Positions 1 to 22,808 of a stretch of 64,000 nt of DNA are shown here, piece by piece (position 1 is the stretch's first letter; each line of letters opens with the position of its first letter). The stretch comes from Nitrospirota bacterium (GTDB lineage: Bacteria; Nitrospirota; UBA9217). Both the position numbers and the translations under genes were made by a program. The notes under the pieces are model-generated. The model worked only from the letters and a program-made list of their open reading frames with translations, was not told where the DNA came from and made no database searches. The stretch lies in contig CAWIYV010000007.1 in NCBI GenBank assembly GCA_963840455.1, positions 192,001-256,000 of the forward strand. Reading direction: 5' to 3'.

Positions 1-189
1 GAAAAAGATCTTCTGGAGCTGGCTCAGCGCCGGCTTGGACCAGTGCAAGTACTGGGACCCAACCCCATGGGCAGTGTCACAAGGTTACAGGAAGATGAAG
101 GAAAGAAAGTGAAACCACGCCCTGTACGAGCTGTTCCACGCGTAAAGGCCGGGCGCAGACAGAGCGCGCTCAGAAAAAAGGGGAAGTAA
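1..189 (+). CDS. 3' end of a CDS, probably MvhD/FlpD-like hydrogenase iron-sulfur subunit (partial)
   Basis: Frame 1 is open from base 1 to TAA at 187-189 (EKDLLELAQRRLGPVQVLGPNP...). LGPNP resembles the MvhD C-terminus, and the position before metV-metF matches the Moorella hdr-mvhD-metVF order. Confidence 0.4.
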   Translation, partial: EKDLLELAQRRLGPVQVLGPNPMGSVTRLQEDEGKKVKPRPVRAVPRVKAGRRQSALRKKGK

Positions 190-246
190 CAGTCCCTGTG
201 TTCTATTGTGGATTGTAATAATACGTCCCATGAAGGGGGAGAGAAC

Positions 247-918
247 ATGATTATTGCGGAATGGAAGCCCCTGCCGGAACTGGTGGATAAATTAAGAGGA
301 CATACCAATGTTCTCGTAGCGGGATGCGCTACCTGTGTGGCAGAGTGCGCGGCGGGCGGGGAGCGTGAAGTGGAGACCCTTGCGCCGCTGCTTCAGATGG
401 CGCTCAAGAAAGAAGGGCACACGATCACCGTGCGTACCAGGACGGTGGAGCGGCAGTGTGAATGGGAATTCGTGGAGGAGCTGGCCGAACTGGTCCCTCA
501 CGTGGATGCGATCGTCAGCCTTGCCTGCGGCATCGGCATTCAGGCGGTGGCCGAGCGGTTTCCCGATCTGGCGGTATATCCCGGCGTGAACACGACGGCC
601 CTGGCGATCCGGCAGGAGCCGGGAATGTGGATCGCGCGGTGCGCGGCCTGCGGCGACTGTGTTCTTGGCGAAACCTTTGGCCTGTGTCCGGTCGCCCGCT
701 GCGCAAAAAGTCTTTCAAACGGACCGTGCGGCGGCACCAGAAAAGAAGGCAAATGCGAAATCGATGAGAACCTCGACTGCGTGTGGTTCCAGATCTACGA
801 GCGGGCAAAATCCCGCGGGAAAGTGAAGCAACTCCTTAAAGTGCGGAAGCCCAAAAACTGGTCGAACTCAGGCCATGGAGGTCCCAAGCGGGTGGTACGG
901 GAGGATCTGCGGCCATGA
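247..918 (+). CDS. metV: MetV-like Cys-rich subunit of methylene-THF reductase (MTHFR C-terminal domain family)
   Basis: Motifs GCATCVAEC, RQCEWEF, ACGIG and CAACGDC...CPVARCAKSLSNGPCGG; overlaps the metF start. ATG at 247 follows a purine-rich RBS. Confidence 0.85.
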   Translation: MIIAEWKPLPELVDKLRGHTNVLVAGCATCVAECAAGGEREVETLAPLLQMALKKEGHTITVRTRTVERQCEWEFVEELAELVPHVDAIVSLACGIGIQAVAERFPDLAVYPGVNTTALAIRQEPGMWIARCAACGDCVLGETFGLCPVARCAKSLSNGPCGGTRKEGKCEIDENLDCVWFQIYERAKSRGKVKQLLKVRKPKNWSNSGHGGPKRVVREDLRP

Positions 919-1853
919 TGAAAGCAGGGACCAGACTCGAAAAAACGCTCCGCGCCGGACAGTTCGCCCTGACCGTCGAGGTGGGACCGCCGCGCGGCCC
1001 CAACCCCGAGGATATCCTTCGCAAAGCGCGGCTGCTCAAGGGCGTCGCCGACGGGTATAACGTCACCGACAATCAGACCGCGGTGGTGCGCATGTCGAGC
1101 ATTGCCGGCGCCCGGCTTCTTCTCGAGGCCGGATGCGAACCGATCATGCAGATGACGTGCCGTGACCGCAACCGCATCGCCCTGCAATCCGACCTGCTGG
1201 GTGCCTGGGCGCTCGGAATGCGCAACTGCCTCTGCATTTCAGGCGACCACCAGAAAGCGAGCGCATCAGGAAAGCTGAAAGGCGACCCCGGCGCCAAGAA
1301 CGTCTTTGACGTCGACTCGATGCAGCTGATCTCGATCATGAAGAACATGCGTGACGCAGGTGTTCTGGTGAGCGGCGACCTTCTTTCGCAGCCGACGCCT
1401 TTTTTTATCGGCGCAGCCTGGACGCCGTTTGCACCTCCTGAAGAGTTCCGTGTATTGCGGCTTGCCAAGAAGATCGAGGCGGGCGCCGACTTTATCCAGA
1501 CCCAGGCCGTCTTTGACATGAAGCGGTTCGCAAACGCTGTCGCAACGGCCGAGGAGATGGGGCTCACCGAAAAGACCGCGATTCTGGCCGGTATCATTGT
1601 TCCAAAATCCGCCAGAATGCTCGAATATATGAATGCCAACGTGCCGGGCGTGGAAGTACCGGACGCCCTCATCAAGCGGATGGCTGCCGCAAAGGACCAG
1701 CGCCAGGAAGGGTATCAGATCACTGTTGAACTGATCCAGGCCGCCCGGAAGATCCCGGGTGTGAAAGGCGTGCACCTCCAGGCCATTGAATCCGAAGAGG
1801 TTCTGCCCGAGATCATAAAATCCGCTGGACTCCTGCCCCGACCGCAGGTTTAA
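915..1853 (+). CDS. metF: Methylenetetrahydrofolate reductase
   Basis: Motifs NVTDNQTAVVRMSS, QMTCRDRNRIALQSDLLGA, ISGD and KKIEAGADFIQTQ. Confidence 0.92.
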   Translation: MMKAGTRLEKTLRAGQFALTVEVGPPRGPNPEDILRKARLLKGVADGYNVTDNQTAVVRMSSIAGARLLLEAGCEPIMQMTCRDRNRIALQSDLLGAWALGMRNCLCISGDHQKASASGKLKGDPGAKNVFDVDSMQLISIMKNMRDAGVLVSGDLLSQPTPFFIGAAWTPFAPPEEFRVLRLAKKIEAGADFIQTQAVFDMKRFANAVATAEEMGLTEKTAILAGIIVPKSARMLEYMNANVPGVEVPDALIKRMAAAKDQRQEGYQITVELIQAARKIPGVKGVHLQAIESEEVLPEIIKSAGLLPRPQV

Positions 1854-1881
1854 ACTCGCTGTTCCCGGATGGTAAGAAGAC

Positions 1882-3351
1882 ATGTCGAAGAAATATCACA
1901 TCAGGATTGATCCGGCGCCCGCCCGCTATCCGGGCGTACCCAAGTATTCCGTGCTGGAAACCGAGGGATGTCTGGGCTGTTTGAAGTGCGTTAAGCGGAC
2001 CTCGTGCGTGTACTCCGCCTATGACGAGCGGTCGTTCGATCCCAAGGCGATCGTGGACAAGACCGACACCATGTGCGTTGGCTGCATGCAATGCGTCCAG
2101 GATTGCAAAAAGAACATTCTCAGCCGGGGAAAGAACCCCCGGTTCGAAAAAATGGGCAATGCGTACTGGACGCCCTCGGTCATCGCGGGCATCTGGAAAC
2201 AGGCCGAGAATGGCAAGATACCCGTATCCGGCGCCGGTTACCGCGGTCCGTTCAGCGGTGCCGGATTCGATCAGATGTGGACAGACATGTCGGAAATCGT
2301 CCGGCCCACCCGCGACGGCATCCACGGCCGCGAATATATCAGCACGCTCATTGAACTTGGCCGGAGGCCGTCCAGACTTGTTTTCGACGCCCGGGGCGGC
2401 ATGGTGACCGAGCCTCCTCCGTTCATCGAGTTGCCGGTTCCTCTTGTATTGGAAATTCCCGATTCCGCCCACGTGTCGGCCCAAACGATAGAGGCTATCG
2501 CCCGTGCCGGCCATCGCGCCGGGACGCTGCTGATCGTCGATGCCAAAACCGCAAAGAACATCCCACCACGTCTTAAAGACCGGTTGATGGTGATCTTTGA
2601 TCCGGCGGTCGACAAGGCCGCCGTTCTCAAGGACATTCCCGCGGTCCAGATGGCCTATTCGGCATCCGTAATGAAAGATGCCGCCAAGCTCAAGCGTACC
2701 CGGCCTGACCTGGTGATTTCGGTGCGCGTGCCACTCGATGAACATGCGGTGAAACGCGCTGCCAAACTTGCCGCCGACGGGGCGGAGGTGGTCCATCTCT
2801 ATGCAGATGGAAAGGGCAGGGGGCTGAAAAAGCGCAAGGCCGACTTTGTTACCGCCCTTATGAAGGAAGTGCACTTCAAGCTGGTGGATGAAGGCGTGCG
2901 CGAAGAGCTGACGCTTCTGGTTTCCGGCGGCATTGCAATGGCCGAGCATGTCGCCAAGGCAATGCTCTGCGGAGCCGATGGTGTGGGCGTTGACACCGCG
3001 CTGTTGGTCGCTCTGGAGTGCCGCGTCTGCACGATGTGCAAATCCGAGATCGTATGCCCGGTGGAACTGGAAAAGGCGCCGGTGGAATGGGCCGAGAAGC
3101 GGATCGTGAACCTTCTTGGTTCATGGCACTCCCAGCTTATCGAAATGATGGGCGCAATGGGAATCCGCGAGGCGCGCCGCCTGCGGGGAGAGCTCGGCCG
3201 GGCGATGTTTTTTGATGACCTGGAGCGGGAAAACTTCGGGCCGCTGTTCGGAGAGCGGGTAAAGGGAGATCAGGCCGCGCCGGTATTGCCGAACGAAATA
3301 CCCGTCCCCCATCACGGGAACGGTCGTCTTCAAGACGCCGGGCGGCATTGA
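1882..3351 (+). CDS. Degenerate glutamate synthase FMN-barrel protein with N-terminal ferredoxin-like cysteines
   Basis: CLGCLKC and CVGCMQCVQDC, SGAGYRGPF, SGGI...AKAMLCGADGV, CRVCTMC..C; lacks the EIK/QGAKPG.GG segment. Confidence 0.75.
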   Translation: MSKKYHIRIDPAPARYPGVPKYSVLETEGCLGCLKCVKRTSCVYSAYDERSFDPKAIVDKTDTMCVGCMQCVQDCKKNILSRGKNPRFEKMGNAYWTPSVIAGIWKQAENGKIPVSGAGYRGPFSGAGFDQMWTDMSEIVRPTRDGIHGREYISTLIELGRRPSRLVFDARGGMVTEPPPFIELPVPLVLEIPDSAHVSAQTIEAIARAGHRAGTLLIVDAKTAKNIPPRLKDRLMVIFDPAVDKAAVLKDIPAVQMAYSASVMKDAAKLKRTRPDLVISVRVPLDEHAVKRAAKLAADGAEVVHLYADGKGRGLKKRKADFVTALMKEVHFKLVDEGVREELTLLVSGGIAMAEHVAKAMLCGADGVGVDTALLVALECRVCTMCKSEIVCPVELEKAPVEWAEKRIVNLLGSWHSQLIEMMGAMGIREARRLRGELGRAMFFDDLERENFGPLFGERVKGDQAAPVLPNEIPVPHHGNGRLQDAGRH

Positions 3352-3358
3352 TGTCACC

Positions 3359-4849
3359 GTGAAACTCGACCCTTCCCGCTACCGCAACCAGTTCGGCAAA
3401 TATAAAGTGGTGCGGACCTCCGCCTGCATCGCATGCGGCAAGTGCGCCGAGGTGTGCGCCTATGGCGTGCACGTCAAGGCGGGCAGCCGCATGCTCGCCC
3501 CCAAATCCCATCTGTGCCGGGGTCGTGAACACTGCCGCGGCAACAAACGGTTTTGCGCCGACAGCTGCCCGGTGAACGCCTTGCGGGTCGGCAAAGACCC
3601 GCTCTTCGAGACGATCGGCGATCCCCGGTGGACCGCTGACCTGTTGCTGGCGACCTGGCATCAGGCCGAGACCGGCCGTCCGCCGGAAGGCGGCCTTGAG
3701 TACCGGGTGGGAGAGTCGGGCGGCGGGTTCGATCGCATGGACTTTAAATTCCCCGAACAGCTTCCCGATCCCTCACTGAAGCCGGAGGACGTGGACCTTT
3801 CCATTCCGCTGAATCGAAGAAAGGACGGACGGCCTGAGGTCATGATCGGCTTTCCCGTATATGGCGGGGGAATGAGTTTCGGATCCGTAAGCCTCACCAC
3901 CATCCTTTCGCGGGCGCGAGCCTATGTCGCGATGAATTCTTTCACCTGCACCGGCGAAGGCGGTTATCCTGACGATCTTAAGCAATACGACGACCATGTG
4001 ATCACTCAGATCGCCACGGGGCTCTTTGGAGTGCGGGAAGAGACCATCCAGCGGGTGCGCATGGTTGAATTCAAATATGCCCAGGGCGCCAAACCGGGCC
4101 TCGGCGGTCATCTGCTGGGAGACAAGGTTACTCCCGCCGTGGCAAAGATGCGGGAAGCAGTGGTCGGCTCCGCTCTTTTTTCTCCCTTTCCGTTCCACTC
4201 GGTCTACTCGGTGGAGGATCACAAGAAACACGTCGACTGGATCAAGGCGATCAACCCCAAGGCGCTGGTGTCGGTCAAGGTTTCCACACCTTCGGACGTG
4301 GACATGGTGGCCGTGGGCAGCTTTTATGCCGGCGCCAATGTCATCCATCTTGACGGAAGCTATGGAGGCACAGGAGCCGCTCCCGATATAGCCAAAAAGA
4401 ATATCGCCATGCCGATCGAGTACGCCATACCCAAGGTGCACCGTTTCTTGGTCGCTGAGGGGATCCGCCCCGAAATGACGCTCATCGTGTCGGGCGGTCT
4501 GCGCACGGCCTGGGATGTCGCCAAGGCGATCGCCCTGGGCGCCGATGGCGTGGTGGTGGGTACAGCGGAGATGGTGGCGCTTGAATGCATCCGGTGCGCA
4601 AACTGCGAGAGCGGACGGGGGTGCCCGCGCGGCATAGCCACTACCGATCCCAAGCTGAGCGCAATGTACGATGAAACCTGGGGTTCTCAGCGGATCATGA
4701 ACCTTTTCCATTCCTGGGCCCTCCAACTCCAGGATATTCTCCATCGTTTCGGTATGAAAAGTGTTCGTGAGCTGGTGGGTCGGTCTGACCTGTTGCTTCA
4801 CCGCGACTACGAAAAACGCGCGGAATACCGCAGAGTGGAGTCAGGATAA
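3359..4849 (+). CDS. Glutamate synthase FMN-binding (synthase) subunit with 4Fe-4S domain, split GltB type
   Basis: CIACGKCAEVC, GGMSFGS, TGEGG, QIATGLFG, EFKYAQGAKPGLGGHL, SGGLRT, CIRCANC..GRGCPRGIAT. The start is uncertain (GTG with no RBS). Confidence 0.88.
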   Translation: MKLDPSRYRNQFGKYKVVRTSACIACGKCAEVCAYGVHVKAGSRMLAPKSHLCRGREHCRGNKRFCADSCPVNALRVGKDPLFETIGDPRWTADLLLATWHQAETGRPPEGGLEYRVGESGGGFDRMDFKFPEQLPDPSLKPEDVDLSIPLNRRKDGRPEVMIGFPVYGGGMSFGSVSLTTILSRARAYVAMNSFTCTGEGGYPDDLKQYDDHVITQIATGLFGVREETIQRVRMVEFKYAQGAKPGLGGHLLGDKVTPAVAKMREAVVGSALFSPFPFHSVYSVEDHKKHVDWIKAINPKALVSVKVSTPSDVDMVAVGSFYAGANVIHLDGSYGGTGAAPDIAKKNIAMPIEYAIPKVHRFLVAEGIRPEMTLIVSGGLRTAWDVAKAIALGADGVVVGTAEMVALECIRCANCESGRGCPRGIATTDPKLSAMYDETWGSQRIMNLFHSWALQLQDILHRFGMKSVRELVGRSDLLLHRDYEKRAEYRRVESG

Positions 4850-7503
4850 TGAATTCCAAATCAACCAGTAAACATAATCCATGGAACGGTACGGGCCGTG
4901 ATCCGCGGTTCCCCGAAATAATCACCGCCTCCCGCGCCGACCTCGTGTCCGGCGCTCCGAACGCCCGGGAAAAATCAGCCGAGGAGGGCGGTTGCGGCGT
5001 GGTAGGTTTCGCGGCCACCGTACCGGTACGGGGACGCCATATCTTCGAGCCTTCTATGCAGATGCATAATCGGGGCAACGGCAAAGGCGGCGGGATCGCC
5101 GCCGCGTCTCTGCAACCCGAGGACCTCGGGGTGGACGAGGCAACGCTGAAGAACGATTACATCCTTCAGATCGCGCTGATCGATCCGGCGGCAGAGCGGG
5201 AAGTGGAGGAGTTCGGCATCGCTCCCTGGCTCGAGGTGCAGCACAAGACCCGCATTCATCCGGTTGCAGACCATCGGGACGTCGGGCTGGAAGTGAAGCC
5301 GCCGGACATCGTGCGATACTTTGTGCGTGTCAAGGACAACGCGCTCACTCGATTTGCCAAGGAGCATGGGTTGGGCAAATCGGACCGCCGTCTGGTTGAG
5401 GATGAGTTCATTTTCCGCAACAGCTTTCAGATCAACCGCCGGTTCTACGCTTCCCTGGGAGACAAACGCGCCTTTGTGCTCTCCCACGCGCGCGATCTGC
5501 TCATATTCAAGATCGTGGGGTATGCCGAGCAGGTCGTGAAGTATTACGGCCTCACCGATATGCGCGCCAAGATCTGGATCGCCCATCAGCGCTATCCTAC
5601 TAAAGGCAGGGTGTGGCATCCTGCGGGCGCGCATCCGTTCATCGGAATGAATGAGGCGCTGGTCCATAACGGCGACTTTGCAAACTACTTCGGCGTGACC
5701 GAATACCTGCGGCAGCGCAACCTCGTGCCACAATTTCTGACCGACACGGAGGTCTCGGTCCTCCTGTTCGATCTGCTGACCCGCGTTTATGGGTATCCGC
5801 TGGAGTATGTCATCGAGGCGATGGCTCCCACCACCGAGATCGACTTCGACGCACTCCCCACAGGCAAGAAGAAGATCTACCGGGCCATTCAGGCCCAGCA
5901 TATGCACGGATCGCCCGACGGCCCCTGGTTCTTCATCATCGCGCGCAGCGATCCGGACCAGTGCCAATACCAGCTTCTGGGGATCACTGACACCTCCATG
6001 CTCAGACCGCAGGTGTTCGCCATCCAGGAGGGGGATGTTTCCATCGGCCTGATCGGTTCCGAGAAACAGGCCATCGACGCCACGCTGCAGTCCCTTGCCG
6101 AGGAAGATGCGCGGTTCCGCCATGTCGCCGACCGATACTGGAACGCCCGGGGTGGCAGCTACACCGACGGCGGCGCCTTCGTCTTCACGGTAAATACGTC
6201 TGGCAACAATACGACACTTGCCTGCGCTGACAAGTTCGGCAAGCCCATCAGCGCGCCTGCCGGGCAGTGGAGGATCAATCCTGACCGGAAGGTGGCGATC
6301 GCGGACAAATGGAGCGCCCGGATCACCAACGGCCTCTCCGCTGCCGCCGCTCAAGAGTTGTTCGGCGACCTTACGGCTGAGTTCCTTTCCTGGGACCTTG
6401 ATCAGATTCGTGTGGCGATCGATAAGATATACACGGCTGCTGCGGTTGATGACCGGAGCTTCGAGACCGCATTGCAGGTGCTTACGTTATTGCAGGACCG
6501 TCGCTACGATTGTGGTCCCAATAAAAGAAGCGCGATTCTCCACCTTCTTCAAAACGGGGTAAGCAGGCTTCTTGACTCGGTTCCGTCGATAACAAAACGT
6601 GACCCGGGCCGATATCAACGGGTGGACTTCTCCACACGCGATCAACTCGGTGCGCCGCAACGAGAAGAGGGGACGCTGGTGGTCTATAGCCGGGATTTCC
6701 CGCCCGAAGGAGACGATTGCGATGCTCTGCTGATGGCCCAGGCCTTTCGGCAGGGCTGGAAACGGTTCATCGTATACGGGCTAAAGGGACAGCGGTTCAC
6801 CGGGTGCAGCTTCGGGCCTGCGACCGACGGCGTCCGCATCGACGTGTATGGCAGTTCCGGCGACTATCTCGCATCCGGGATCGATGGCATGGAGGTCCAG
6901 GTCCACGGCAACGGCCAGGACCAGCTCGGTCAGATACTCAAGCGCGGTACGCTTGTGGTTCACGGCGATGTGGGACAGGCATTCATGTATGGCGCCAAGG
7001 GCGGTGAGATATTCATCATGGGTAATGCAGCAGGGCGTCCCCTCATTAATGCGGCAGGCCGTCCGCGCGTGATCATCAATGGTACCTGCCTGGATTTTCT
7101 CGCGGAATCCTTCATGGCCGGTGATCCGCACCAGGGCGGTGGGTTCGTCGTATTGAACGGCGTTGAATTCGACGACAGGGGCGTGGTCCGCGACCAGAAA
7201 GCGCCCTATCCCGGATCAAACCTTTTTTCGCTCGCTTCCGGCGGCGCGATCTTCGTACGCGATCCCCACCATACGATCGGCAGGGAAAAGCTGAACGGCG
7301 CTGAGTTCGCCGAGATGTCCGTGGAGGATTGGCAGCTCATTCAACCGTATCTTCAGGCAAATGAGCGCCACTTCGGCATTTCGATCGAACGGGATTTGCT
7401 GATGGTTGACGGCAAAACCAGTTCACCTCAATCGGTGTACCGGAAAGTGCGTCCGGTGAAAACGGCGGCGCTTGCCAAAAAGGTGGAAGAATCTGATGAA
7501 TAG
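4849..7503 (+). CDS. Glutamate synthase class II glutamine amidotransferase domain fused to GXGXG beta-helix domain
   Basis: EEGGCGVVG (Ntn Cys after a propeptide), MHNRGNG, HQRYPT, AHPF, HNGD, TDTE; C-terminal GXGXG repeats. Confidence 0.85.
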   Translation: MNSKSTSKHNPWNGTGRDPRFPEIITASRADLVSGAPNAREKSAEEGGCGVVGFAATVPVRGRHIFEPSMQMHNRGNGKGGGIAAASLQPEDLGVDEATLKNDYILQIALIDPAAEREVEEFGIAPWLEVQHKTRIHPVADHRDVGLEVKPPDIVRYFVRVKDNALTRFAKEHGLGKSDRRLVEDEFIFRNSFQINRRFYASLGDKRAFVLSHARDLLIFKIVGYAEQVVKYYGLTDMRAKIWIAHQRYPTKGRVWHPAGAHPFIGMNEALVHNGDFANYFGVTEYLRQRNLVPQFLTDTEVSVLLFDLLTRVYGYPLEYVIEAMAPTTEIDFDALPTGKKKIYRAIQAQHMHGSPDGPWFFIIARSDPDQCQYQLLGITDTSMLRPQVFAIQEGDVSIGLIGSEKQAIDATLQSLAEEDARFRHVADRYWNARGGSYTDGGAFVFTVNTSGNNTTLACADKFGKPISAPAGQWRINPDRKVAIADKWSARITNGLSAAAAQELFGDLTAEFLSWDLDQIRVAIDKIYTAAAVDDRSFETALQVLTLLQDRRYDCGPNKRSAILHLLQNGVSRLLDSVPSITKRDPGRYQRVDFSTRDQLGAPQREEGTLVVYSRDFPPEGDDCDALLMAQAFRQGWKRFIVYGLKGQRFTGCSFGPATDGVRIDVYGSSGDYLASGIDGMEVQVHGNGQDQLGQILKRGTLVVHGDVGQAFMYGAKGGEIFIMGNAAGRPLINAAGRPRVIINGTCLDFLAESFMAGDPHQGGGFVVLNGVEFDDRGVVRDQKAPYPGSNLFSLASGGAIFVRDPHHTIGREKLNGAEFAEMSVEDWQLIQPYLQANERHFGISIERDLLMVDGKTSSPQSVYRKVRPVKTAALAKKVEESDE

Positions 7504-7639
7504 GCGCGCCCCTCAGACCACAGCGCAATGTCCTGCGTTGTCATCTCTTCCTTAGATACAACATTCATTTTCTGTTTCGCCACATGCAATGACATAAGTC
7601 CATCGGACTTCCGAAAGGAACTTTTTGAGGAACAGTATC

Positions 7640-8656
7640 ATGAGCAAGACGCTTCATGCGATCCTCTCTATTCTTGACAAGCATCCGACCGTGGTCGGTT
7701 CTCGGGAGATCTCGCGGCAGTTGAAGCTGCGCGGCGTGGAGATCACCGAACGGACGGTCCGGTATTATCTGAAAATGCTTGATAAGAAAGGCTATACGGA
7801 AGTATTTGGCAAGGAAGGCCGAAAGATCACCGCCGCCGGAAGGGAAGAGCTCAAACACTCCCTCGTTTCCGACAAGATCGGATTTGTGATCAGCAAAATT
7901 GAAACGCTCTCGTACATGACCACCCTGGACATGGCGACCATGGAAGGCGATGTGATCCTGAACATCTCGTATTTTCCGCGAAAGCACCTTCGTCAGGCGC
8001 TGCGATTGCTCAAACCCGCCTTCTCGTCACCTTATGTGATGAGCGATCGGGTGATCCTTGCACCCGAGGGGGAGAAGATCGGGGATGTAGTCGTTCCCAA
8101 AGGAATGGTGGGGTTGGGCACGATCTGCAGTGTGACGATCAACGGTATATTTCTTAAGGCGGGCATTCCCGTCGCCTCGCGGTTTGGCGGGGTCGTGGAG
8201 ACCGCGAATGGCAAACCCCTGCGGTTCGTTTCCCTGATCAGCTATGACGGATCATCCCTCGATCCTCTCGAAGTGTTCATCAAGAGCAAGATGACCGCAG
8301 TCTCCAAGGCCGTGGCTGACGGCCGCGGCAGGATACTCGCCAGTTATCGGGAGATCCCCGTGGTATGTCTGGACAAGGCAAAAAAGCTCGCCCGCACCCT
8401 GGAAGATCGGGGCATACGCGGCATTCTGCTTATCGGCAGTCCGAACAAACCCCTTCTGGAAGTACCGGTCGGGATCGACCGGGCCGGCATCGTGATCGTC
8501 GGCGGACTCAATCCGGTGGCCGTCCTGGAGGAGCACGGGATCACAACGGAGAGCAAGGCCATGTCGACCCTCTTCGAATATTCCCGCTTGATGCCGTTCA
8601 AGGGCATCATGCGCTCTGCGCTCTCTCTTGCGAGGACTCTTTCCTGCGCTGCATAG
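7640..8656 (+). CDS. nrpR: NrpR-family (DUF128) nitrogen-responsive transcriptional repressor
   Basis: N-terminal winged HTH (ITERTVRYYLKMLD...GRKITAAG) plus NRD domain motifs (TICSVTINGI, ISYDGSSLDPLEVF, GGLNPVA). Confidence 0.8.
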   Translation: MSKTLHAILSILDKHPTVVGSREISRQLKLRGVEITERTVRYYLKMLDKKGYTEVFGKEGRKITAAGREELKHSLVSDKIGFVISKIETLSYMTTLDMATMEGDVILNISYFPRKHLRQALRLLKPAFSSPYVMSDRVILAPEGEKIGDVVVPKGMVGLGTICSVTINGIFLKAGIPVASRFGGVVETANGKPLRFVSLISYDGSSLDPLEVFIKSKMTAVSKAVADGRGRILASYREIPVVCLDKAKKLARTLEDRGIRGILLIGSPNKPLLEVPVGIDRAGIVIVGGLNPVAVLEEHGITTESKAMSTLFEYSRLMPFKGIMRSALSLARTLSCAA

Positions 8657-8718
8657 CCACTGCCGCCCCATAACGATCGCAACGGCAACAATTTCGACCA
8701 CTCTAGCCCAATTTTCGC

Positions 8719-8748
8719 TTGACAGTTGAGCTTAACCCGGTGTATTGT
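8719..8748 (+). promoter_or_regulatory. Putative sigma70 promoter
   Basis: TTGACA-18 nt-TATTGT upstream of the second glutamate synthase operon. Confidence 0.5.
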
Positions 8749-8784
8749 ACTCATCCGAAATCGCACGGCAATGCATTGCCGTCG

Positions 8785-8812
8785 AAAAGCCCCTTTAAAA
8801 GGGGCTTTTTTT
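8785..8812 (+). terminator. Intrinsic terminator hairpin (bidirectional appearance)
   Basis: AAAAGCCCC-tttaaaa-GGGGCTTTT continuing into a T tract. Confidence 0.75.
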
Positions 8813-9051
8813 GCAGTTGTTTGGGGACATAAACCACTGGCCCTTTGTTCGCCTGGAGAGGGTTGTTCTCGCCGGTAGTCCGGGCCCCCCCGATGAACAG
8901 AACTTGGCCATAGCTAACACACCAAATCCGATACATCCAGTCTATAATATGATGGTAGACTGGCTGGGTATCGCATGCTGATATTTGCATTTGGCTACAC
9001 ACCCGGGTGTTTTCTCCAAACATTACCGGCTGTAAGAAGAGGAGCAACAGT

Positions 9052-10161
9052 ATGTGCCGTTTGAGCGCGATCACGTCGGGCGATTATTTCTCCCCCATGG
9101 AGAACATCCTGGCTCTGGAGACCATGAAGGAAGGACACGACGGGTCCGGTCTCGGCCTGATGCTGAAGGACTTGGGCGGCCCCTTTGCGGAGTTCAAGGG
9201 GTATCCGGTCCTGTCCGTCGTCTGCTCCAACAAGGGACTCCTGTTCCTGGACGAATACATGAAGGCGCAGGGGTTCAAGGAAAAGTTCACCTGGGCGCCT
9301 ACTATCAAGAACGTACGGGGCATCGAACGACGGGAGCACTATCTCGCAAAGGTGTACGATTATCCTGAGAGCTACCGGGACAAACCGATGCGTGAGCAAG
9401 AGGACCTGCTGATGAATACGCGGCTGTCCCTCCGGAAGGTGGGTGAGCCCGATGAGTCCATCTTCGCCTTTTCGTTCTATCCCGATGTTCTCACCCTGAA
9501 GGAAGTAGGAGATCCGCTCCATGTCGGCGAGTTCTTCGGACTGGACACATCAGACATTTCGGCAAAGATCGTTTTAGCCCAGGGCCGGCAGAACACGAAC
9601 TATGCCATCTATCTCTACTCGTGCCATCCTTTCTTCATCCAGGGTTACGGCACCATGACGAATGGCGAGAATACCGCCTTCGTGCCCATCCGGGAGTTCC
9701 TGATGGGGCGCGGCAATCCCGGCTACATGGGGTACAACTCGGATTCCGAGGTCTTCACGCACATCCTGCACTATACGAACAGGACCCTCGGCTATCCGAT
9801 GCACTACTATAAGGATGTCATCACGCCGCTGAAAGAAAGCGAGATCGAGAAAAGGTCCGACGCAGCGGCGCTCCGTCTGCTCAAGAAGTCGCTCCGGCCG
9901 CTCTGTATCGACGGGCCCAACTGCGTCATCGGGTTCACGCCCGATGGATCGTGCTTCATGGTCCACGACGCGAAGAAGCTGCGGCCCGGCGCGGTAGGCG
10001 GGAAACCCGGCAAGTACGCGCTCATGTCCGAGGTGTGCGGTGTGGACCGGGCGGTCCCGAACCGGGACAAGGCCACGGACATCTTCCCGATGAAGTACGA
10101 CATGGTCATCATCGCGCCCGGCGCGCGGGAGGTCAAGGTATGGAATCAGCTGCACGGTTAG
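9052..10161 (+). CDS. Stand-alone class II glutamine amidotransferase (glutamate synthase domain 1)
   Basis: N-terminal M-C-R-L nucleophile after an AGGAG RBS; GHDGSG, QGRQNTN, CHPF, NGENT, SDSE motifs. Confidence 0.88.
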   Translation: MCRLSAITSGDYFSPMENILALETMKEGHDGSGLGLMLKDLGGPFAEFKGYPVLSVVCSNKGLLFLDEYMKAQGFKEKFTWAPTIKNVRGIERREHYLAKVYDYPESYRDKPMREQEDLLMNTRLSLRKVGEPDESIFAFSFYPDVLTLKEVGDPLHVGEFFGLDTSDISAKIVLAQGRQNTNYAIYLYSCHPFFIQGYGTMTNGENTAFVPIREFLMGRGNPGYMGYNSDSEVFTHILHYTNRTLGYPMHYYKDVITPLKESEIEKRSDAAALRLLKKSLRPLCIDGPNCVIGFTPDGSCFMVHDAKKLRPGAVGGKPGKYALMSEVCGVDRAVPNRDKATDIFPMKYDMVIIAPGAREVKVWNQLHG

Positions 10162-11795
10162 ATCAGAACCATCAGCTCACGCTGAAGGAATTCCCCTATA
10201 TCATCCAGTGGCGCGAGGACCGGTGCACCCGCTGCGGCCGCTGCACGGCCGTCTGCCCCATGAAGTCAATCGAACCGGCCGTGCAGGTTCAGCGCCTCGT
10301 GCGCTCCGAGGGCGACAACCCATCGCCCAAGATATCGCGTACCGTCTCCCACGTGGTGAAGCAGGTCACGGACATCGAACGCTACTGCATCGGCTGCGGG
10401 TCCTGCACGCTCGTCTGCCCGACCGATGCCATCTTCCCGGAGTACAACTTCCAGCACAAGTTCTACCACTTCAAGAACAAGGGCGGCATCCCGTACATGC
10501 GGGGCGGCCGGCGGAACGACCCTTCGGTCTCGACGCTCGACAAGCTCAAGTTCACCCGGATCTCCATGCTCACCGACCCGGCGCTCGACGCGGGGCGGCA
10601 CGAGTTCCGCATCCGCACGCTCCTGGGCAGGAACCTCCCGGCTGAGCAGCTTCCCCTCAGGGTGTCGGGCGAAACGCTCAGCATCGGCGATGGTACCTTC
10701 ATCCCGCCGGTCCGCGAGATATATCCCATCCGCATCGGCAGCATGTCCATCGGCGCGCTCTCGCCCCACATGTGGGAGGGGCTCGCCATGGGGATCACGT
10801 ACCTGAACGAGGTCGAGGGCCTGCCGGTGGTGATGTGCTCCGGCGAGGGCGGCATGCCGCCCTCCCTCTTGAAATCGCGCTACATGAAGTACTTCATCCT
10901 CCAGATCGCGTCGGGCTATTTCGGATGGGATGAGATCATTCGGGCGCTGCCAGACATGATCGAGGATCCCTGCGCCATAGAGATCAAGTACGGGCAGGGC
11001 GCGAAGCCCGGCGACGGCGGGCTGCTCCAGGCGTACAAGGTGCTGGGGCTCATTGCCAAGATCCGGGGCGTACCGCAGTTCGTTGACCTGTCTTCACCGC
11101 CCACTCACCAGACGCAATACTCCATCGAGGAATCGGTCGCTAAAATGATACAGTCCATGTCAATGGCTTGGGGTTTCCGTGTGCCTGTGTATCCCAAGAT
11201 TTCGGGCAGCAAAACAGCGCGGGCAGTGCTTAATAATCTCGCGCGGAACCCTTATGCGGCAGCGCTCTGCATTGATGGCGAGGACGGCGGCACGGGCGCG
11301 GCCTACAATGTATCCATGGACAAGATGGGGCATCCCATCGCGTCGAACATCCGCGATTGCTACCTGGACCTGGTGAAGCAGGGCAAGCAGAACGAGCTGC
11401 CGCTCATCGCTGCGGGCGGCGTGGGCAAGGGCGGGAACCTCGCGGCGAATGCCGCTGCGCTCATCATGCTGGGAGCATCGGCGGTGGACATCGGAAAGTA
11501 CATCATGCAGACCGCGGCAGGCTGCTTCGGCGATGAGCATAACCGCTGCAACGTCTGCAACCTCGGCAGGTGCCCGCGCGGCATAACGACGCAGGACCCC
11601 AAGCTCTACCGCAGGCTCGATCCCGACAAGGTCGCCGAGCGCGTGGTGGAGGTCTTCAAGGCGGCCGACGTGGAGCTCAAGAAGATCTTCGCGCCGCTGG
11701 GCAGGAGCACCGAGCTTCCCATCGGCATGTCCGACGCGCTCGGTGTGGGGGACAAGGACATCGCGGATAGGCTGTCGATCAGCTACGTTTGTTAA
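10140..11795 (+). CDS. gltB: Glutamate synthase FMN-binding subunit with two 4Fe-4S motifs
   Basis: CTRCGRCTAVCP, CIGCGSCTLVCP, GSMSIGALS, SGEGG, EIKYGQGAKPGDGG, CNVCNLGRCPRGITTQD; ATG at 10140 after GGAGG. Confidence 0.85.
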   Translation: MESAARLDQNHQLTLKEFPYIIQWREDRCTRCGRCTAVCPMKSIEPAVQVQRLVRSEGDNPSPKISRTVSHVVKQVTDIERYCIGCGSCTLVCPTDAIFPEYNFQHKFYHFKNKGGIPYMRGGRRNDPSVSTLDKLKFTRISMLTDPALDAGRHEFRIRTLLGRNLPAEQLPLRVSGETLSIGDGTFIPPVREIYPIRIGSMSIGALSPHMWEGLAMGITYLNEVEGLPVVMCSGEGGMPPSLLKSRYMKYFILQIASGYFGWDEIIRALPDMIEDPCAIEIKYGQGAKPGDGGLLQAYKVLGLIAKIRGVPQFVDLSSPPTHQTQYSIEESVAKMIQSMSMAWGFRVPVYPKISGSKTARAVLNNLARNPYAAALCIDGEDGGTGAAYNVSMDKMGHPIASNIRDCYLDLVKQGKQNELPLIAAGGVGKGGNLAANAAALIMLGASAVDIGKYIMQTAAGCFGDEHNRCNVCNLGRCPRGITTQDPKLYRRLDPDKVAERVVEVFKAADVELKKIFAPLGRSTELPIGMSDALGVGDKDIADRLSISYVC

Positions 11796-11800
11796 CGGAC

Positions 11801-11864
11801 GGAGCCAGGAGTCAGGAATCGAGAGAAAATCGATTTTCTTCTGGCTTCTGGCTCCTGACTTCCT
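11801..11864. repeat. Intergenic palindromic unit of inverted heptamer-like repeats
   Basis: GGAGCCAGGAGTCAGGA ... TTCTGGCTCCTGACT around the perfect palindrome AGAAAATCGATTTTCT (11824-11839). Confidence 0.6.
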
Positions 11865-11878
11865 ATTCTGAGGTATAC

Positions 11879-14203
11879 ATGATCATCCAAGGCAATGTGA
11901 ACGGAAAACGGGTCTCTTCGAAGGACCTCGAGGCGCAGCTCCAGAAGGCCGTCAAGGAGGGCGCGAAGGACCTCACGGTCAGGGCCGACGGCCAGCACGG
12001 CATCGGCGGGAGGATCTGGCCGCAATTCGGCACGGTGAAGGTGACCATCGAGGGAACTGCGGGGCAGCGCATCGGCAGCATGGGCATGGACGGCACCGAG
12101 ATCGTGGTGAAGGGCTCGACATCCGACGATACGGGCTGGCTCAACTGCGGGGCCGTGATCACCGTGCTCGGCGATGTGGCCAATGGGGCGCATAATGGAG
12201 CCGCCCAGGGCAAAATGTATGTGCAGGGCGGGGGCGGCGCTCGCTGCGACACCATGACCAAAAAGAATCCCCGCTTTTCAGACCTCGAGTCCTGGTATTT
12301 CCGGGGAGTAGGGGACTCCTTCGCCGAGTTCAAGGCCGGCGGCATCGCTGTGGTTTGCGGCGTGGACCCACGCGATCCGGAGAACGTCCTCGGGTATCGA
12401 CCCTGTGTGGGCATGGTCGGCGGAACGATCTATTTCCGTGGTCCCATTAAGGAGTACAGCAAGGGAGCCGTGAAGCTTGTAGACCTTACTCCCCAGGACT
12501 GGGAGTGGCTTACCGCGAACATGAGGCCTTACCTCGAGGCCATCGACCGCATGTCTTTCTACGAGGACCTGACAAAGGATGTCACTGTCTGGAAGAAACT
12601 GATCGCTTCTACCCCGGCCGAAAGGGCCAAGGTCAGGGGCAGGCTCAAGATGGGCCTGACAGAGTTCCGCCTGAACGTGTGGGAGAAAGAAGTGGGCAAA
12701 GGCGGCATGTTCGGCGCCTACCTGACCCACGACCGCTCTGTGCTTCCCTATATCACGACTGGGGAGGAACGGCGGTGGAAGCCGAGCTGGAAGAACGACA
12801 AGTACCTCCCGCCCTGCGCATATGCTTGCCCGTCGCGGATCCCGTCGCACAAACGGGCGACCCTGCTCCGGCAGGGGAGGACCGCCGAGGCCTTGGCGCT
12901 CGTTCTGCAGTACAGCCCGCTGCCGGCCACGGTCTGCGGCCAGGTCTGTCCGAACCTCTGCATGACCGACTGCACGCGTGGCAGGATCGACCAGCCCCTC
13001 AACATCAAGGAGTACGGCGCAGTTGCGCTGGACCTTAAGGCGCCCAAAAAGGCGAAGCCCACGGGCTTCAGCGTCGCTATCATCGGCGGCGGCCCCGGCG
13101 GCCTTTCCGCTGCCTGGCAGCTGGGCCTCAAGGGCCATTCCGTGGACCTCTACGAGGCTGGCAGCAAGATCGGCGGCAAGCTCGAAATGTGCATCCCGCG
13201 CGAACGTCTGCCCAAGGAGATCCTGGACAAGGAACTGTCGCGCTTCGCCGAGATCGGCGTGAAGGTCCATGTCAAGACGCCGGTTGACCGCACAACGTTC
13301 GACAAGATCTACAAAGACCATGACGTCGTGGTCGTAGCCGTGGGCGCCCACGAAGGCCGGGTCATCCCGTTCCCGGGCCACGAGGACGTGGTCAAGGGCA
13401 TCGACTACCTGAAGGAGATCAACTTCGGGAAGCCGAAGAACCTGAAAGGCGGGAAGGTCGTCGTGATCGGCGCGGGCAATGTGGGCATGGACATTGCCTG
13501 TCAGGCCTGGGACCAAGGCGCTGGCAGCGTGACCTGCGTGGACATCCAGAAGCCCGCTGCATTTGGCAAGGAGCTGGAGCTGGCCACATCCAAGGGGACC
13601 AAGGTTCTCTATCCGAAGGTGACCGAGAAGTACGACGCCAAGGCGAAGAAGATCTTCTTTACCGACGGCACGTCCCTGGACGCGGAAATGGTCATCATCT
13701 CTATCGGCGAGAAACCGGTGCTCGACTTCCTACCGCCCGAGGTGCATACGGACCGCGGGTACATCGTTGTGAACGAACTTGGCCAGTCCTCGGACGTGAA
13801 GGTCTTTGCCATCGGCGACGCCACCAAGCCGGGCCTCGTGACCCATGCCATCGGACAGGGCAAGGTGGCCGCCGACGTGATCAACGCCCAGCTGATGAAC
13901 TTCGACTATGTGCCGGAAGAGCGGCGGGTGATCCCCTATGAGCGGATCAAGACCCAGTATTATGAGGTCTGCCGGATGGTCGGCAAGTTCTCGGCGAAGA
14001 AGGAGGCCGACCGCTGCATGAGCTGCGGGTCCTGCCGCGACTGCGGCATGTGCGTGGAGTCGTGCTACTACGGCGCCATCACGCGCAAGACCCTGCCGAA
14101 CAAGTCCTACGAGTACGTGGTGGACGAGAGCCGCTGCATTGGCTGCGGCTTCTGCGCGGGCATCTGTCCCTGCGGCGTCTGGGAGATGGTTGAGAACGTG
14201 TAG
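11879..14203 (+). CDS. gltD: GXGXG domain fused to GltD-like FAD/NAD(P)H oxidoreductase and C-terminal ferredoxin
   Basis: N-terminal GXGXG repeats; PPCAYACP/CGQVCPNLCMTDC; IIGGGPGG; VIGAGNVG; CMSCGSCRDCGMC and CIGCGFCAGICP. Confidence 0.82.
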   Translation: MIIQGNVNGKRVSSKDLEAQLQKAVKEGAKDLTVRADGQHGIGGRIWPQFGTVKVTIEGTAGQRIGSMGMDGTEIVVKGSTSDDTGWLNCGAVITVLGDVANGAHNGAAQGKMYVQGGGGARCDTMTKKNPRFSDLESWYFRGVGDSFAEFKAGGIAVVCGVDPRDPENVLGYRPCVGMVGGTIYFRGPIKEYSKGAVKLVDLTPQDWEWLTANMRPYLEAIDRMSFYEDLTKDVTVWKKLIASTPAERAKVRGRLKMGLTEFRLNVWEKEVGKGGMFGAYLTHDRSVLPYITTGEERRWKPSWKNDKYLPPCAYACPSRIPSHKRATLLRQGRTAEALALVLQYSPLPATVCGQVCPNLCMTDCTRGRIDQPLNIKEYGAVALDLKAPKKAKPTGFSVAIIGGGPGGLSAAWQLGLKGHSVDLYEAGSKIGGKLEMCIPRERLPKEILDKELSRFAEIGVKVHVKTPVDRTTFDKIYKDHDVVVVAVGAHEGRVIPFPGHEDVVKGIDYLKEINFGKPKNLKGGKVVVIGAGNVGMDIACQAWDQGAGSVTCVDIQKPAAFGKELELATSKGTKVLYPKVTEKYDAKAKKIFFTDGTSLDAEMVIISIGEKPVLDFLPPEVHTDRGYIVVNELGQSSDVKVFAIGDATKPGLVTHAIGQGKVAADVINAQLMNFDYVPEERRVIPYERIKTQYYEVCRMVGKFSAKKEADRCMSCGSCRDCGMCVESCYYGAITRKTLPNKSYEYVVDESRCIGCGFCAGICPCGVWEMVENV

Positions 14204-14285
14204 GACAGGATCCCGTACAGACACCGAGGCCCTTTATCGTATACCGGTAAAAGGCCTTTTCATTTCTGAGGTCTGCACATCCCTA

Positions 14286-14314
14286 TTGACACGGTCTGTG
14301 CTATGCCATAAACT
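14286..14314 (+). promoter_or_regulatory. Putative sigma70 promoter
   Basis: TTGACA-17 nt-TAAACT upstream of the ORF at 14353. Confidence 0.55.
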
Positions 14315-14352
14315 GGAGCACAGGAGATGTATCGAGGGACGAGGAGGGGTTC

Positions 14353-14691
14353 ATGGCGGAATTCTTGAAGAAACTGAAGGTGAGGTCGATCCTGATCGCG
14401 ATCGCTGCTTTCATTGTGGTGATCCTCTGGAGCTACTTTATCCCGGATACGATCATGACCAAGATCACCGATGCCCAGATGGCCAAGGTGGACGGCAGGT
14501 TCATGATCGCCACCGAGGACCGGCCGCTCATTAATGAGGATGCCAAGTACCGGTTCAAGTTCAACTCAGGGAACCTCCAGAACGAAGCCATCAGGCTCAG
14601 GGGGAAGGCCGTCCGGATCAGGAAGTACGGATGGCGGGTGCCGATGCTGTCCTGGTACGAGAACGTCGTGAAGATCGAAGAAGTGAAATAA
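14353..14691 (+). CDS. DUF1523-like membrane-anchored protein
   Basis: Single TM segment, NEDAKYRFKFNSGNLQ and YGWRVPMLSWYENVV; strong GAGGAGG RBS. Confidence 0.65.
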   Translation: MAEFLKKLKVRSILIAIAAFIVVILWSYFIPDTIMTKITDAQMAKVDGRFMIATEDRPLINEDAKYRFKFNSGNLQNEAIRLRGKAVRIRKYGWRVPMLSWYENVVKIEEVK

Positions 14692-14752
14692 CGCCACGGC
14701 CGTACATCCGCCTCGGCACGCATCCATCCAAACGCCCCGCCACCTTGTTACA

Positions 14753-15280
14753 CTATTGCCCCGACCCCGGAAATTCTAGGTTCAGTCTCCGATCCACATC
14801 AGGGGACAATCGAATGTAGACAGTGACCTTGCCGTCCTTCAGCGTATAGCTCACGAGCAGCGGGTCCGTCCCTCCGACATCGTAGTAAGGATACCGGGGG
14901 AGTATCTCGTAGCCGATCGTACCGTTGTTTCCGTCCGGGATCCTGTGGACCCGGAGCTCGGTGACCGTGTGAATGCCGCACCGGACGAACGCATCCGCCT
15001 CGGCAAGAGCCTTGTCTGCCGGAAGGCCCCGCTTGACCTTGTAGGATGTGGCCGGCACGTAGAGTTCCACCATGCCTGCCTTGTCAGGAGCTATCAGGAA
15101 CGCAGCATGTTCGATGTCGTCGGGATACCGGCAGCCATAGGTGTAAAGATCGTAGGTGCCCTGAATCCCCTTCGGATCGGCCGTCTCGGTCTGGAGCTGC
15201 GTGCCCAACGCGCAACCGGACAGGGATGCAGCGATCAGGAACAACGAGAAAAGCAGCAACACAGGTCTTGGATTATTCAT
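14753..15280 (-). CDS. Hypothetical lipoprotein
   Basis: Signal peptide with lipobox LSGC; GGGAGG RBS. Confidence 0.7.
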   Translation of the reverse strand: MNNPRPVLLLFSLFLIAASLSGCALGTQLQTETADPKGIQGTYDLYTYGCRYPDDIEHAAFLIAPDKAGMVELYVPATSYKVKRGLPADKALAEADAFVRCGIHTVTELRVHRIPDGNNGTIGYEILPRYPYYDVGGTDPLLVSYTLKDGKVTVYIRLSPDVDRRLNLEFPGSGQ

Positions 15281-15439
15281 ATATTATCCCTCCCTTGCGC
15301 TAATTACTTCCCTGCTTGTATCTACCAAGCCATTATACCACTGAACAGCCGATATGATGAGCCTCATGCCCGGCGGATATGCAGGGGATGGGCGATTGCC
15401 GGTCCATAAGGACACGCAGGAGCGGGAAGAAATTCATTT

Positions 15440-21102: not shown

Positions 21103-21105
21103 GAG

Positions 21106-21247
21106 GACAGAAGTCAGGAGTCAGAATTCAGAATGAATGAAAAGTTACGATACAACAAGAGCGGAAGAGCGCAAGTGCTGAGTCAGCCGACGTTGCAAAG
21201 GAATGATCCGTTCCTCTTCTGACTACTGTCTCCTGTCTCCTGTTTCC
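21106..21247. repeat. Inverted heptamer-repeat element between selA and selB
   Basis: Left arm ACAGAAGTCAGGAGTCAGAATTCAGAA; right arm TTCTGACTACTGTCTCCTGTCTCCTG overlapping the selA stop. Confidence 0.55.
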
Positions 21248-22644: not shown

Positions 22645-22808
22645 GGACAGTAACATAACATAGATGTCATTGAATATCAACAGCTTGATTGGTGCTTTTG
22701 CCGTGATCAGCGCGCTGCCGAGGACTTCTCTGTCCTTGACAGGGAAGGGAGGATGTGTCACCTTAACACCATTGTCATAAAGCGCGGACGAGAAGAAAGG
22801 AGCCTGCC

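Follow-up and report, generated by a model that had tools for sequence, protein, structure and literature searches.

A cluster of six genes that overlaps the left end of a 64,000-nucleotide (nt) stretch of a Nitrospirota genome (lineage UBA9217; contig CAWIYV010000007.1) appears to encode a glutamate synthase (GOGAT) attached to a reductase of the one-carbon pathway. The stretch, called the window below, covers positions 192001-256000 of contig 7 (C7:192001-256000) in a 4.03-Mb genome of 14 contigs, and its numbering is used throughout. The cluster consists of an mvhD-like gene, metV and metF (the two subunits of a methylene-tetrahydrofolate (THF) reductase), two genes for flavin mononucleotide (FMN) barrel proteins, FMN1 and FMN2, and a gene for a glutamine amidotransferase (GATase)-GXGXG fusion protein. 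By its gene and domain content it represents a predicted fourth glutamate synthase architecture. We propose that the six genes specify a nitrogen-regulated holoenzyme devoid of the GltD subunit, in which MvhD and MetVF would supply the electron path, and we put the probability of this reading at about 0.5. Nitrogen enters biomass mainly through glutamate synthase, which is known to draw its electrons from NAD(P)H by way of GltD, from ferredoxin and perhaps from F420. No description of an mvhD-metVF-glutamate synthase cluster was found in the full-text literature, supplements aside, and database names for the fusion protein are 'glutamate synthase' or 'GXGXG domain-containing protein'.

The locus was delineated by profile matches (Pfam, NCBIfam) on the proteins of the window and of its upstream flank (Table 1). 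The mvhD-like gene starts 365 nt before the window and has its last 189 nt inside. The metV and metF open reading frames (ORFs) share 4 nt, and orthologues of metV start at residue 14 of the annotated ORF, that is, at window position 247. An earlier note, made from the letters of the window, had described the mvhD-like gene, metV, metF, two FMN genes, the fusion gene and nrpR on one strand, a gap of 28 bp between metF and FMN1, the lack of a GltD subunit in the block and a complete GltD-containing second synthase directly downstream. All these elements were recovered: the genes lie on the plus strand, the spacer has the expected length, the second synthase is in place, and a profile search detected no Pyr_redox_2/GltD-type domain across the six cluster genes, the only one belonging to the neighbouring protein encoded at 11789-14203. 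The two FMN genes are two ORFs here but a single one in the five closest relatives (see below), and the upstream inspection that the earlier note suggested for hdrA and mvhD revealed mvhD but no HdrABC in the block. Three points were absent from that note: the split fusion, the existence of the cluster MetVF as a second copy beside a Moorella-type Hdr-MvhD-MetVF set, and a second nrpR upstream.

The core of the predicted enzyme resembles that of glutamate synthases. FMN2 aligns with residues 880-1169 of GltB from A. brasilense (E 3e-54) and with the ferredoxin-dependent synthase of Synechocystis (E 5.5e-50). It keeps the [3Fe-4S] cysteines C1102, C1108 and C1113, has a fourth Cys besides, and its synthase motifs are near-invariant in 60 sequences. 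In the fusion protein, a 48-residue leader precedes Cys49, the nucleophile of class-II (N-terminal nucleophile, Ntn) enzymes, with a Cys frequency of 0.97 in that column of 76 sequences; the glutaminase half gives PurF/GlmS-type matches and the GXGXG domain occupies residues 659-818 (PF01493, E 2.5e-12). Both halves form one polypeptide in the listed homologues as well. FMN1, 31% identical to FMN2, still has the barrel and the cysteines for Fe-S clusters. The substrate-loop motifs of GltB are missing from it, and it carries an invariant block of its own (residues 133-153). Its AlphaFold2 model contains a confident barrel (155-435) for which the best Foldseek matches were generic FMN-dependent alpha-hydroxy-acid oxidase barrels. 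Such matches agree with a role as the GltB central domain and with an active flavin site alike. The profile of the central domain (PF04898) gave no above-threshold match other than a weak one inside FMN2. The accessible part of PMC8097209 depicts the central domain as a barrel that is truncated, may have arisen by duplication of the FMN barrel, and lines the ammonia tunnel. By analogy, FMN1 fits the central-domain role; it may also have an active second flavin site.

To place the cluster among other genomes, the fusion protein was scanned against one genome per species. This yielded 211 confirmed relatives, and the window proteins were mapped by tblastn onto the best 80 loci; these being the fusion protein's closest relatives, the shares given here describe the near neighbourhood of the family. 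FMN2 was found in 68 of the 69 loci with at least 1.7 kb of upstream sequence, and FMN1 together with FMN2 in 59 of the 60 with at least 3.3 kb. Fifty loci have at least 5.6 kb upstream: 39 keep the order mvhD-metV-metF-FMN1-FMN2-GAT/GXGXG, nine have mvhD-FMN1-FMN2-GAT/GXGXG without metVF, and the remaining two are truncated (L023) or devoid of metV (L078). The adjacency of metVF and the synthase genes is, to judge from these locus counts, far beyond chance. The earlier proposal had been made dependent on conservation of this adjacency in other genomes; since the six genes stand in this order at 39 of 50 loci, drawn from many phyla, the adjacency cannot be regarded as peculiar to this genome. 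The 80 loci are distributed over Nitrospirota, Planctomycetota, Chloroflexota, Thermodesulfobacteriota, other Deltaproteobacteria, Fibrobacterota, Verrucomicrobiota, Myxococcota and Poribacteria. Among named relatives of this genome, Nitrospirota metagenome bins are the closest. At E ≤ 0.001 the fusion protein matched 7678 database clusters among 8000 scored, MvhD-type and bare forms (see below) pooled, and its occurrence within Nitrospirota is patchy (7 of 301 genomes). A synthase without GltD and with a dedicated MetVF is most likely a widespread design in uncultured anaerobes, as far as gene content can tell.

Gene fusions provided a second line of evidence. FMN1 and FMN2 form a single ORF of about 985 residues in at least 50 of the 63 loci where FMN1 was found and are separate in 10. 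The ORF measures 988 residues in the five closest relatives, all Nitrospirota, against 489 + 496 residues here (by alignment): one extra base near 3327, in the linker, causes FMN1 to end at 3351 and FMN2 to restart from a GTG codon at 3359. This may be a true split or an assembly error, and function may well be kept since natural split forms exist. At two loci, MvhD is fused in frame to FMN1-FMN2 (L031:6393-9833, 1146 residues; L043:6474-9884, 1136 residues). Because of these fusions, MvhD is predicted to be part of the synthase, with FMN1 and FMN2 acting as a pair. MetVF, on the other hand, would not be essential to the synthase, as nine of the 50 clusters do without it. Random genome samples also contained a bare form, FMN1-FMN2-GAT/GXGXG with neither MvhD nor MetVF, in large Planctomycetota and some Chloroflexota genomes (L098-L101, L104-L106 and L110); no donor gene is evident nearby and, in six of these eight loci, FMN2 lacks the N-terminal 70-85 residues. 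The genes, their domains, the conserved order and the fusions are observed; we infer from them, with support, that the products of the six genes assemble into a single complex that acts as a GOGAT and is subject to nitrogen control.

The putative electron carriers of the cluster retain their hallmarks. MvhD, a [2Fe-2S]-type adaptor with NCBIfam VhuD and HdrA2 matches, has invariant cysteines at 24, 53, 78 and 83 in 31 orthologues, and MetV has 13 invariant cysteines. MetF aligns to the Thermus methylene-THF reductase (1v93), matching it at the Glu, Asp and Gln residues within the FEFFPP, RGD and ITQ motifs, whose roles we take to be those known from E. coli work. The genome has another MetF (C10:303503-304432), which belongs to an HdrCB, HdrA-MvhD, MetV, MetF set lying about 9 kb from the gene for acetyl-CoA synthase (ACS). 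The cluster MetF is an additional paralog in all six genomes considered, namely this one and five others with the full cluster (at least two methylene-THF reductase matches each); five genomes whose cluster lacks metVF all have a MetF elsewhere. Sixteen other-copy MetF loci were inspected in this genome and ten cluster-bearing ones: Hdr-like genes adjoin MetF in seven, MetV is its sole companion in five, it stands by itself in three, and the remaining locus was without a tblastn match. In a 56-row MetF tree (quick LG+G4 search, rows under 280 residues excluded), 35 of 44 cluster MetFs fall in one clade of mixed phyla with an SH-aLRT value of 100; four make up a second clade, and the other five sit close to MetFs flanked by Hdr genes. 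Judged from the paralogues and the tree, the cluster MetVF is a dedicated second copy. The MvhD part of the set on C10 contains one in-frame TGA, maybe a selenocysteine codon (L082:10303-10983), and genes for SelB and SelA are present in the window (19201-22761, minus strand). A search of this genome with the Met_synt_B12 profile (PF02965) gave no match.

Physical association was further assessed by folding FMN1 and MvhD (residues 1-150) with MetV as the partner, using 31-row alignments of each. MetV scored 0.62 against MvhD plus FMN1 (runs at 0.60, 0.62 and 0.63), the best control, in which FMN1 was replaced, reached 0.40, and unrelated partners scored 0.00 and 0.00. The pass mark applied here is reached by 58 of 80 solved complexes and by 2 of 110 mismatched pairs, a calibration that custom alignments make rough. 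The contacts are shared by at least 78% of runs, with a pLDDT of 84 or more for the partner. They join residues 41-70 of MetV to residues 58-67 and 99-108 of MvhD and to residues 28-36 of FMN1, placing the Cys40-47 region of MetV on the first cluster motif of FMN1. No solved structure of a MetV relative was found; the pass is therefore not the memory of a known structure. The model supports binding of MetV to MvhD and to the ferredoxin domain of FMN1.

The MvhD-type cluster accompanies the acetyl-CoA pathway in every genome where it was seen. With PF03598 as the marker, ACS was found in 17 of 17 genomes with this cluster (G000, G001-G005, G007-G010, G109, G121, G183, G236, G568, G683 and G638) and in one of eight bare-form genomes; the background in random samples was 150/301 for Nitrospirota, 49/251 for Planctomycetota and 34/201 for Chloroflexota. 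A third MvhD domain of this genome forms the C-terminus of a QmoB-like HdrA (L111; C11:515001-531000), beside genes for ATP sulfurylase, an AprA-like flavoprotein and QmoA- and QmoC-like proteins. From this gene row, the organism would seem to combine sulfate reduction with the acetyl-CoA pathway.

Genes of nitrogen metabolism recur next to the cluster. In the 80 loci, nrpR (identified with the window's own proteins) was found 11 times, amtB 9, glnA 8, the P-II gene 7 and gdh 6 times. Ten of the 25 most recurrent flank families are annotated: PPDK_N-like, AmtB, GlnA, P-II, GDH, NAD synthase, a sigma-54 activator, a lipoyl ligase, a secretion ATPase and a His-biosynthesis enzyme. No methylamine-pathway gene is among these ten, and neither hydrogenase nor HdrA nor NuoF is recurrent in the flanks of the 80 loci. 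In two of the five other genomes (G001 and G002), the Glu_synthase profile has no strong match outside the cluster. Both copies of nrpR in this genome lie at this locus and encode proteins with HTH and NRD1/2 domains, and the portion of PMC9765008 available to us presents NrpR as a 2-oxoglutarate-dependent repressor of nif and glnA in methanogens.

The leaders of the two GOGAT operons share a sequence module. The top sigma-70-like sites in the two regions form a twin pair (10 of 12 matches, at -638 and 8719); both lie just 3' of an nrpR and 230-260 nt ahead of an operon. Each begins a module composed of the sigma-70-like promoter, a 6-bp hairpin (CGGCAA-NNNN-TTGCCG) and an intrinsic terminator. 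Eight such modules were found in five Nitrospirota genomes, each directly after nrpR and 150-260 nt before a GOGAT operon; the hairpin of one (L005:4666) shows a compensatory stem change. The palindrome occurs only three times in this genome, where the terminator of the mvhD-leader copy is degraded. The module could be a nitrogen-regulated small RNA or an attenuator. Rfam returned no match for it, nor any across the upstream 20 kb; window 1-16000 gave two below the threshold, which were put down to chance. Alternative promoters and terminators were discarded, consensus scans being no more productive than in shuffled sequence and the twin 10/12 promoters ranking best; a strict sigma-54 promoter (TGGYAY-N5-YTGCH) was likewise rejected: none of the 53 regions reaching up to 450 nt before mvhD contained it, compared with 5 of 1060 control windows drawn at random.

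All of the genes are covered, at 90-99% identity, by contigs from four soil libraries, three of RNA and one presumed to be RNA. As these runs hold 5-10% of the words, at that identity, the RNA must come from relatives. One contig (1832-2157) and another across 1864 bridge the metF-FMN1 spacer, and others bridge the metV/metF and FMN2/GATase junctions. The co-transcription of metF and FMN1 that had been proposed from the sequence is supported to that extent, but contigs of this kind cannot prove one transcript.

How might such an enzyme work? The glutaminase half of the 884-residue fusion would free ammonia from glutamine, and the FMN2 barrel would join it to 2-oxoglutarate and reduce the imine. 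The GXGXG beta-helix and the FMN1 barrel would act as scaffold, FMN1 standing at the position of the 'central domain' of GltB. Electrons would reach FMN2 through an Fe-S chain made up of the ferredoxin domains of FMN1 and FMN2, MetV and MvhD, with the flavin of MetF at the far end. MvhD-MetVF would thus take the place that GltD has in NADPH-GOGAT, with the MetF flavin site as the point of electron entry. This assignment follows the analogy with GltBD and other enzymes having two flavins and an Fe-S wire, in which one flavin takes electrons from the donor and the other hands them to the acceptor, as set out in the accessible text of PMC8097209. Flow in the direction from MetF and 5-methyl-THF to FMN2, suggested by the same analogy, is advanced tentatively. 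The reductant would be 5-methyl-THF, an abundant intermediate in acetyl-CoA-pathway anaerobes, which we favour as donor because MetF is a dedicated extra copy and because the cluster accompanies ACS. The folate couple lies near -200 mV. The FMN of GltS is placed at -240 mV in the part of PMC8097209 at hand, and imine reduction would pull the reaction forward. The most specific form of the scheme, in which MetVF replaces GltD to give a 5-methyl-tetrahydrofolate-dependent glutamate synthase and the methyl-/methylene-THF couple serves as the reductant for nitrogen assimilation in acetyl-CoA-pathway anaerobes, is rather doubtful. If it held, the synthase reaction would also offer a high-potential sink for the thermodynamically awkward oxidation of methyl-THF.

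Several observations weigh against a nitrogen-regulated holoenzyme fed through MvhD and MetVF. All of the best 80 loci are from metagenome bins or single cells, and metVF is missing from the nine clusters already mentioned. The split FMN1-FMN2 gene and the degraded leader terminator may reflect decay of the copy in this genome. The margin of the folding model is only +0.22 and MetV still scores 0.40 with FMN1 replaced, so that most of the signal comes from MetV and MvhD. Ten of the genomes tested for ACS were hand-picked, related genomes are not independent, and metagenome-assembled genomes are incomplete. This genome and three of the five others have another GOGAT (in those three, a canonical GltB). 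The methanogen-type NrpR operator, GGAA-N6-TTCC, is absent from C7 180000-260000, where the conserved hairpin module is found instead, and occurs 108 times genome-wide where about 55 are expected. As for the RNA contigs, which cannot establish a single transcript, DNA carry-over is possible. Finally, the ferredoxin domains could take electrons from ferredoxin directly, making MetF a second acceptor instead of a donor; MetF is indeed the acceptor in the Moorella complex (PMC5736913, in its accessible portion).

This last point leads to the main rival, a ferredoxin-fed chain with two acceptor sites. In such a dual reductase, reduced ferredoxin would feed the Fe-S chain by way of the ferredoxin domains and MvhD, FMN2 would make glutamate and MetF would make 5-methyl-THF. 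Conserved cysteines mark 2x[4Fe-4S] domains on FMN1 and FMN2 alike; the clusters without MetVF are explained more simply; the cluster-type MetFs branch among Hdr-adjacent ones; and the association with ACS suits a ferredoxin-centred metabolism equally. However, the dual reductase gives no reason why a second methylene-THF reductase should be co-expressed with nitrogen genes when six of six genomes have another. Moreover, since bare forms exist without MvhD and without Fer4 on FMN2, the synthase core would be reducible without the Fe-S chain. All told, we regard this alternative as unlikely.

Alternatively, the operon might hold two separate enzymes that do not bind each other, brought together by shared regulation or shared horizontal transfer. 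The spacing lends itself to this: the metF-FMN1 gap usually measures 20-360 nt, mvhD, metV and metF often overlap, none of the 80 loci shows MetV or MetF fused to a GOGAT part, and MetV keeps its score of 0.40 without FMN1. Against it stand the gene order kept across many phyla, the use of a dedicated MetF clade, the modelled apposition of the MetV Cys40-47 region and the first cluster motif of FMN1, and the position of MvhD, which MetVF always separates from FMN1 although MvhD and FMN1 are fused in clusters that have no MetVF. Two unconnected enzymes are improbable in our estimation. Quite improbable, too, is an electron-bifurcating module, in which MvhD would dock the synthase, and MetVF along with it, onto an HdrA-type flavoprotein encoded elsewhere, the exergonic synthase reaction helping ferredoxin reduction. 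MvhD is the HdrA-docking adaptor of Mvh-Hdr, as its VhuD and HdrA2 matches indicate, and the genome does offer an HdrA-MvhD beside the other MetVF and the QmoB-type HdrA-MvhD; these HdrA proteins, however, already carry an MvhD of their own, and no gene for HdrA, NuoF or a hydrogenase recurs beside the 80 loci. A route to N-methylglutamate or through methylamine in anaerobes, or other amination chemistry in place of glutamate synthesis, draws on the invariant block of FMN1 and on the make-up of N-methylglutamate synthase, which consists of these same three domains of GltB, but is highly improbable in view of the near-invariant GltB synthase motifs of FMN2, the amtB, glnB, glnA, gdh and nrpR neighbours, the lack of methylamine-pathway members among the ten annotated flank families, and the two genomes in which the cluster is the only strong Glu_synthase match.

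Measured against these results, the earlier note's uncharacterised complex linking folate one-carbon redox chemistry to nitrogen assimilation survives as a conserved, undescribed unit of MvhD/MetVF and a GltD-less synthase, whose physical association is argued from the fusions and the complex model. Its first version, a synthase fed through MvhD/MetVF, is one that we favour tentatively as to the passage and direction of the electrons; its second, the methylamine/N-methylglutamate route, is not supported, given the GltB motifs and Fe-S cysteines of FMN2 and the nitrogen genes nearby. Should MetVF feed the synthase or share its chain, one-carbon and nitrogen metabolism would be coupled within a single enzyme. 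This would bear on the redox partner of MetVF-type reductases and on how energy-limited anaerobes pay for ammonium assimilation.

Upstream of the window lie the second nrpR (E 7.2e-86) and two more Glu_synthase-like genes, and all five Glu_synthase-domain genes of the genome, like both nrpR, are confined to this one locus. The two upstream Glu_synthase-like genes, which precede the first nrpR, encode paralogues of 530 and 526 residues (L001:13841-15433 and L001:15583-17163; window -5159..-1837). Each has a Cys-rich motif at its N-terminus and matches Glu_synthase in part (E 1e-14 to 1e-16), and neither gave an NCBIfam match; a homologue is present upstream of mvhD in L003, L004, L072 and L077.

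Table 1. Features of the cluster and its neighbourhood, in window coordinates unless a contig (C) or locus (L) is given.
Feature	Position	Strand	Description
mvhD-like gene	-365..189 (C7:191636-192189; L001:18635-19189)	+	184 residues; PF02662 FlpD, E 9.1e-19
metV	208-918	+	Fe-S subunit of MetVF-type methylene-THF reductase; PF12225, E 3.7e-32
metF	915-1853	+	flavin TIM-barrel subunit of methylene-THF reductase; PF02219, E 1e-37
metF-FMN1 spacer	1854-1881		28 nt
FMN1	1882-3351	+	N-terminal 2x[4Fe-4S] (Fer4) and divergent (beta/alpha)8 barrel; weak Glu_synthase match, E 2.5e-15
FMN1-FMN2 linker with 1-nt insertion	3320-3360	+	stop 3349-3351, GTG restart 3359
FMN2	3359-4849	+	N-terminal Fe-S (Fer4) and GltB-type FMN/synthase barrel; PF01645 Glu_synthase, E 6.9e-91
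GATase-GXGXG fusion	4849-7503	+	884 residues; PF13522 and PF01493; propeptide of about 48 residues
nrpR, downstream copy	7625-8656	+	PF01995, E 2.3e-86, and HTH domain
Promoter-hairpin-terminator module before second GOGAT	8719-8811	+	twin before mvhD at -638..-550 (L001:18362-18450)
Further modules	L003:4487, L003:13934, L004:4628, L005:4666, L005:12910, L007:4475		
Second glutamate synthase, NAD(P)H type	9007-14203	+	three genes, conserved beside the cluster in L003, L005 and L103
Second GOGAT, divergent GATase	9007-10161	+	E 4e-11 against the fusion protein
Second GOGAT, FMN subunit	9951-11795	+	Fer4 and Glu_synthase
Second GOGAT, GXGXG+GltD+Fer4 fusion	11789-14203	+	

Five known systems invite comparison. 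N-methylglutamate synthase, MgsABC, has GltB-like GATase, GXGXG and FMN parts and is linked to C1-folate metabolism. The present cluster differs in that its FMN2 keeps the GOGAT motifs, in that its hosts are acetyl-CoA-pathway anaerobes and in that the ten annotated flank families include none of the methylamine pathway, such as gamma-glutamylmethylamide synthetase or N-methylglutamate dehydrogenase, a comparison made without an Mgs reference sequence. The ferredoxin-dependent GOGAT of Synechocystis (PDB 1LLW, 1OFD) is likewise devoid of GltD and would share the use of an external one-electron carrier, but is a single chain of 1500 residues without extra ferredoxin domains, MvhD or MetVF. The archaeal-type split GOGAT has a three-gene layout. 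It resembles the cluster in the ferredoxin-like N-terminus of the FMN subunit, the lack of GltD and the anaerobe setting; in the cluster, however, GATase and GXGXG are fused (884 residues) where Archaea have them separate, and an FMN1 barrel is added, usually fused to FMN2, together with MvhD nearly always and MetVF usually. Separate genes for single GltB domains in Archaea are mentioned in the accessible part of PMC8097209.

The likeness to the HdrABC-MvhD-MetVF complex of Moorella, described with MetF as acceptor in the available portion of PMC5736913, resides in the consecutive genes for MvhD, MetV and MetF (PF02662, PF12225, PF02219) and in the branching of the cluster MetFs among those beside Hdr genes, and this genome has a Moorella-type set of its own on C10 near ACS. 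Unlike that complex, the cluster has no HdrA, HdrB or HdrC in the block or in the flanks of the 80 loci; synthase genes occupy the place of Hdr and regulation appears tied to nrpR. Finally, GltBD of A. brasilense (PDB 1EA0, 2VDC, 6S6S) has in common with the cluster the Ntn glutaminase with its N-terminal Cys behind a propeptide, the FMN/synthase barrel with three [3Fe-4S] cysteines, the GXGXG beta-helix and a second, degenerate barrel between the parts that may be comparable to the central domain as outlined in the accessible sections of PMC8097209. The cluster departs from it by spreading the four GltB domains over a [Fer4-barrel'-Fer4-barrel] and a [GATase-linker-GXGXG] protein, by adding a fourth Cys at the cluster site and two 2x[4Fe-4S] domains, and by having, instead of GltD, MvhD and MetVF attached.

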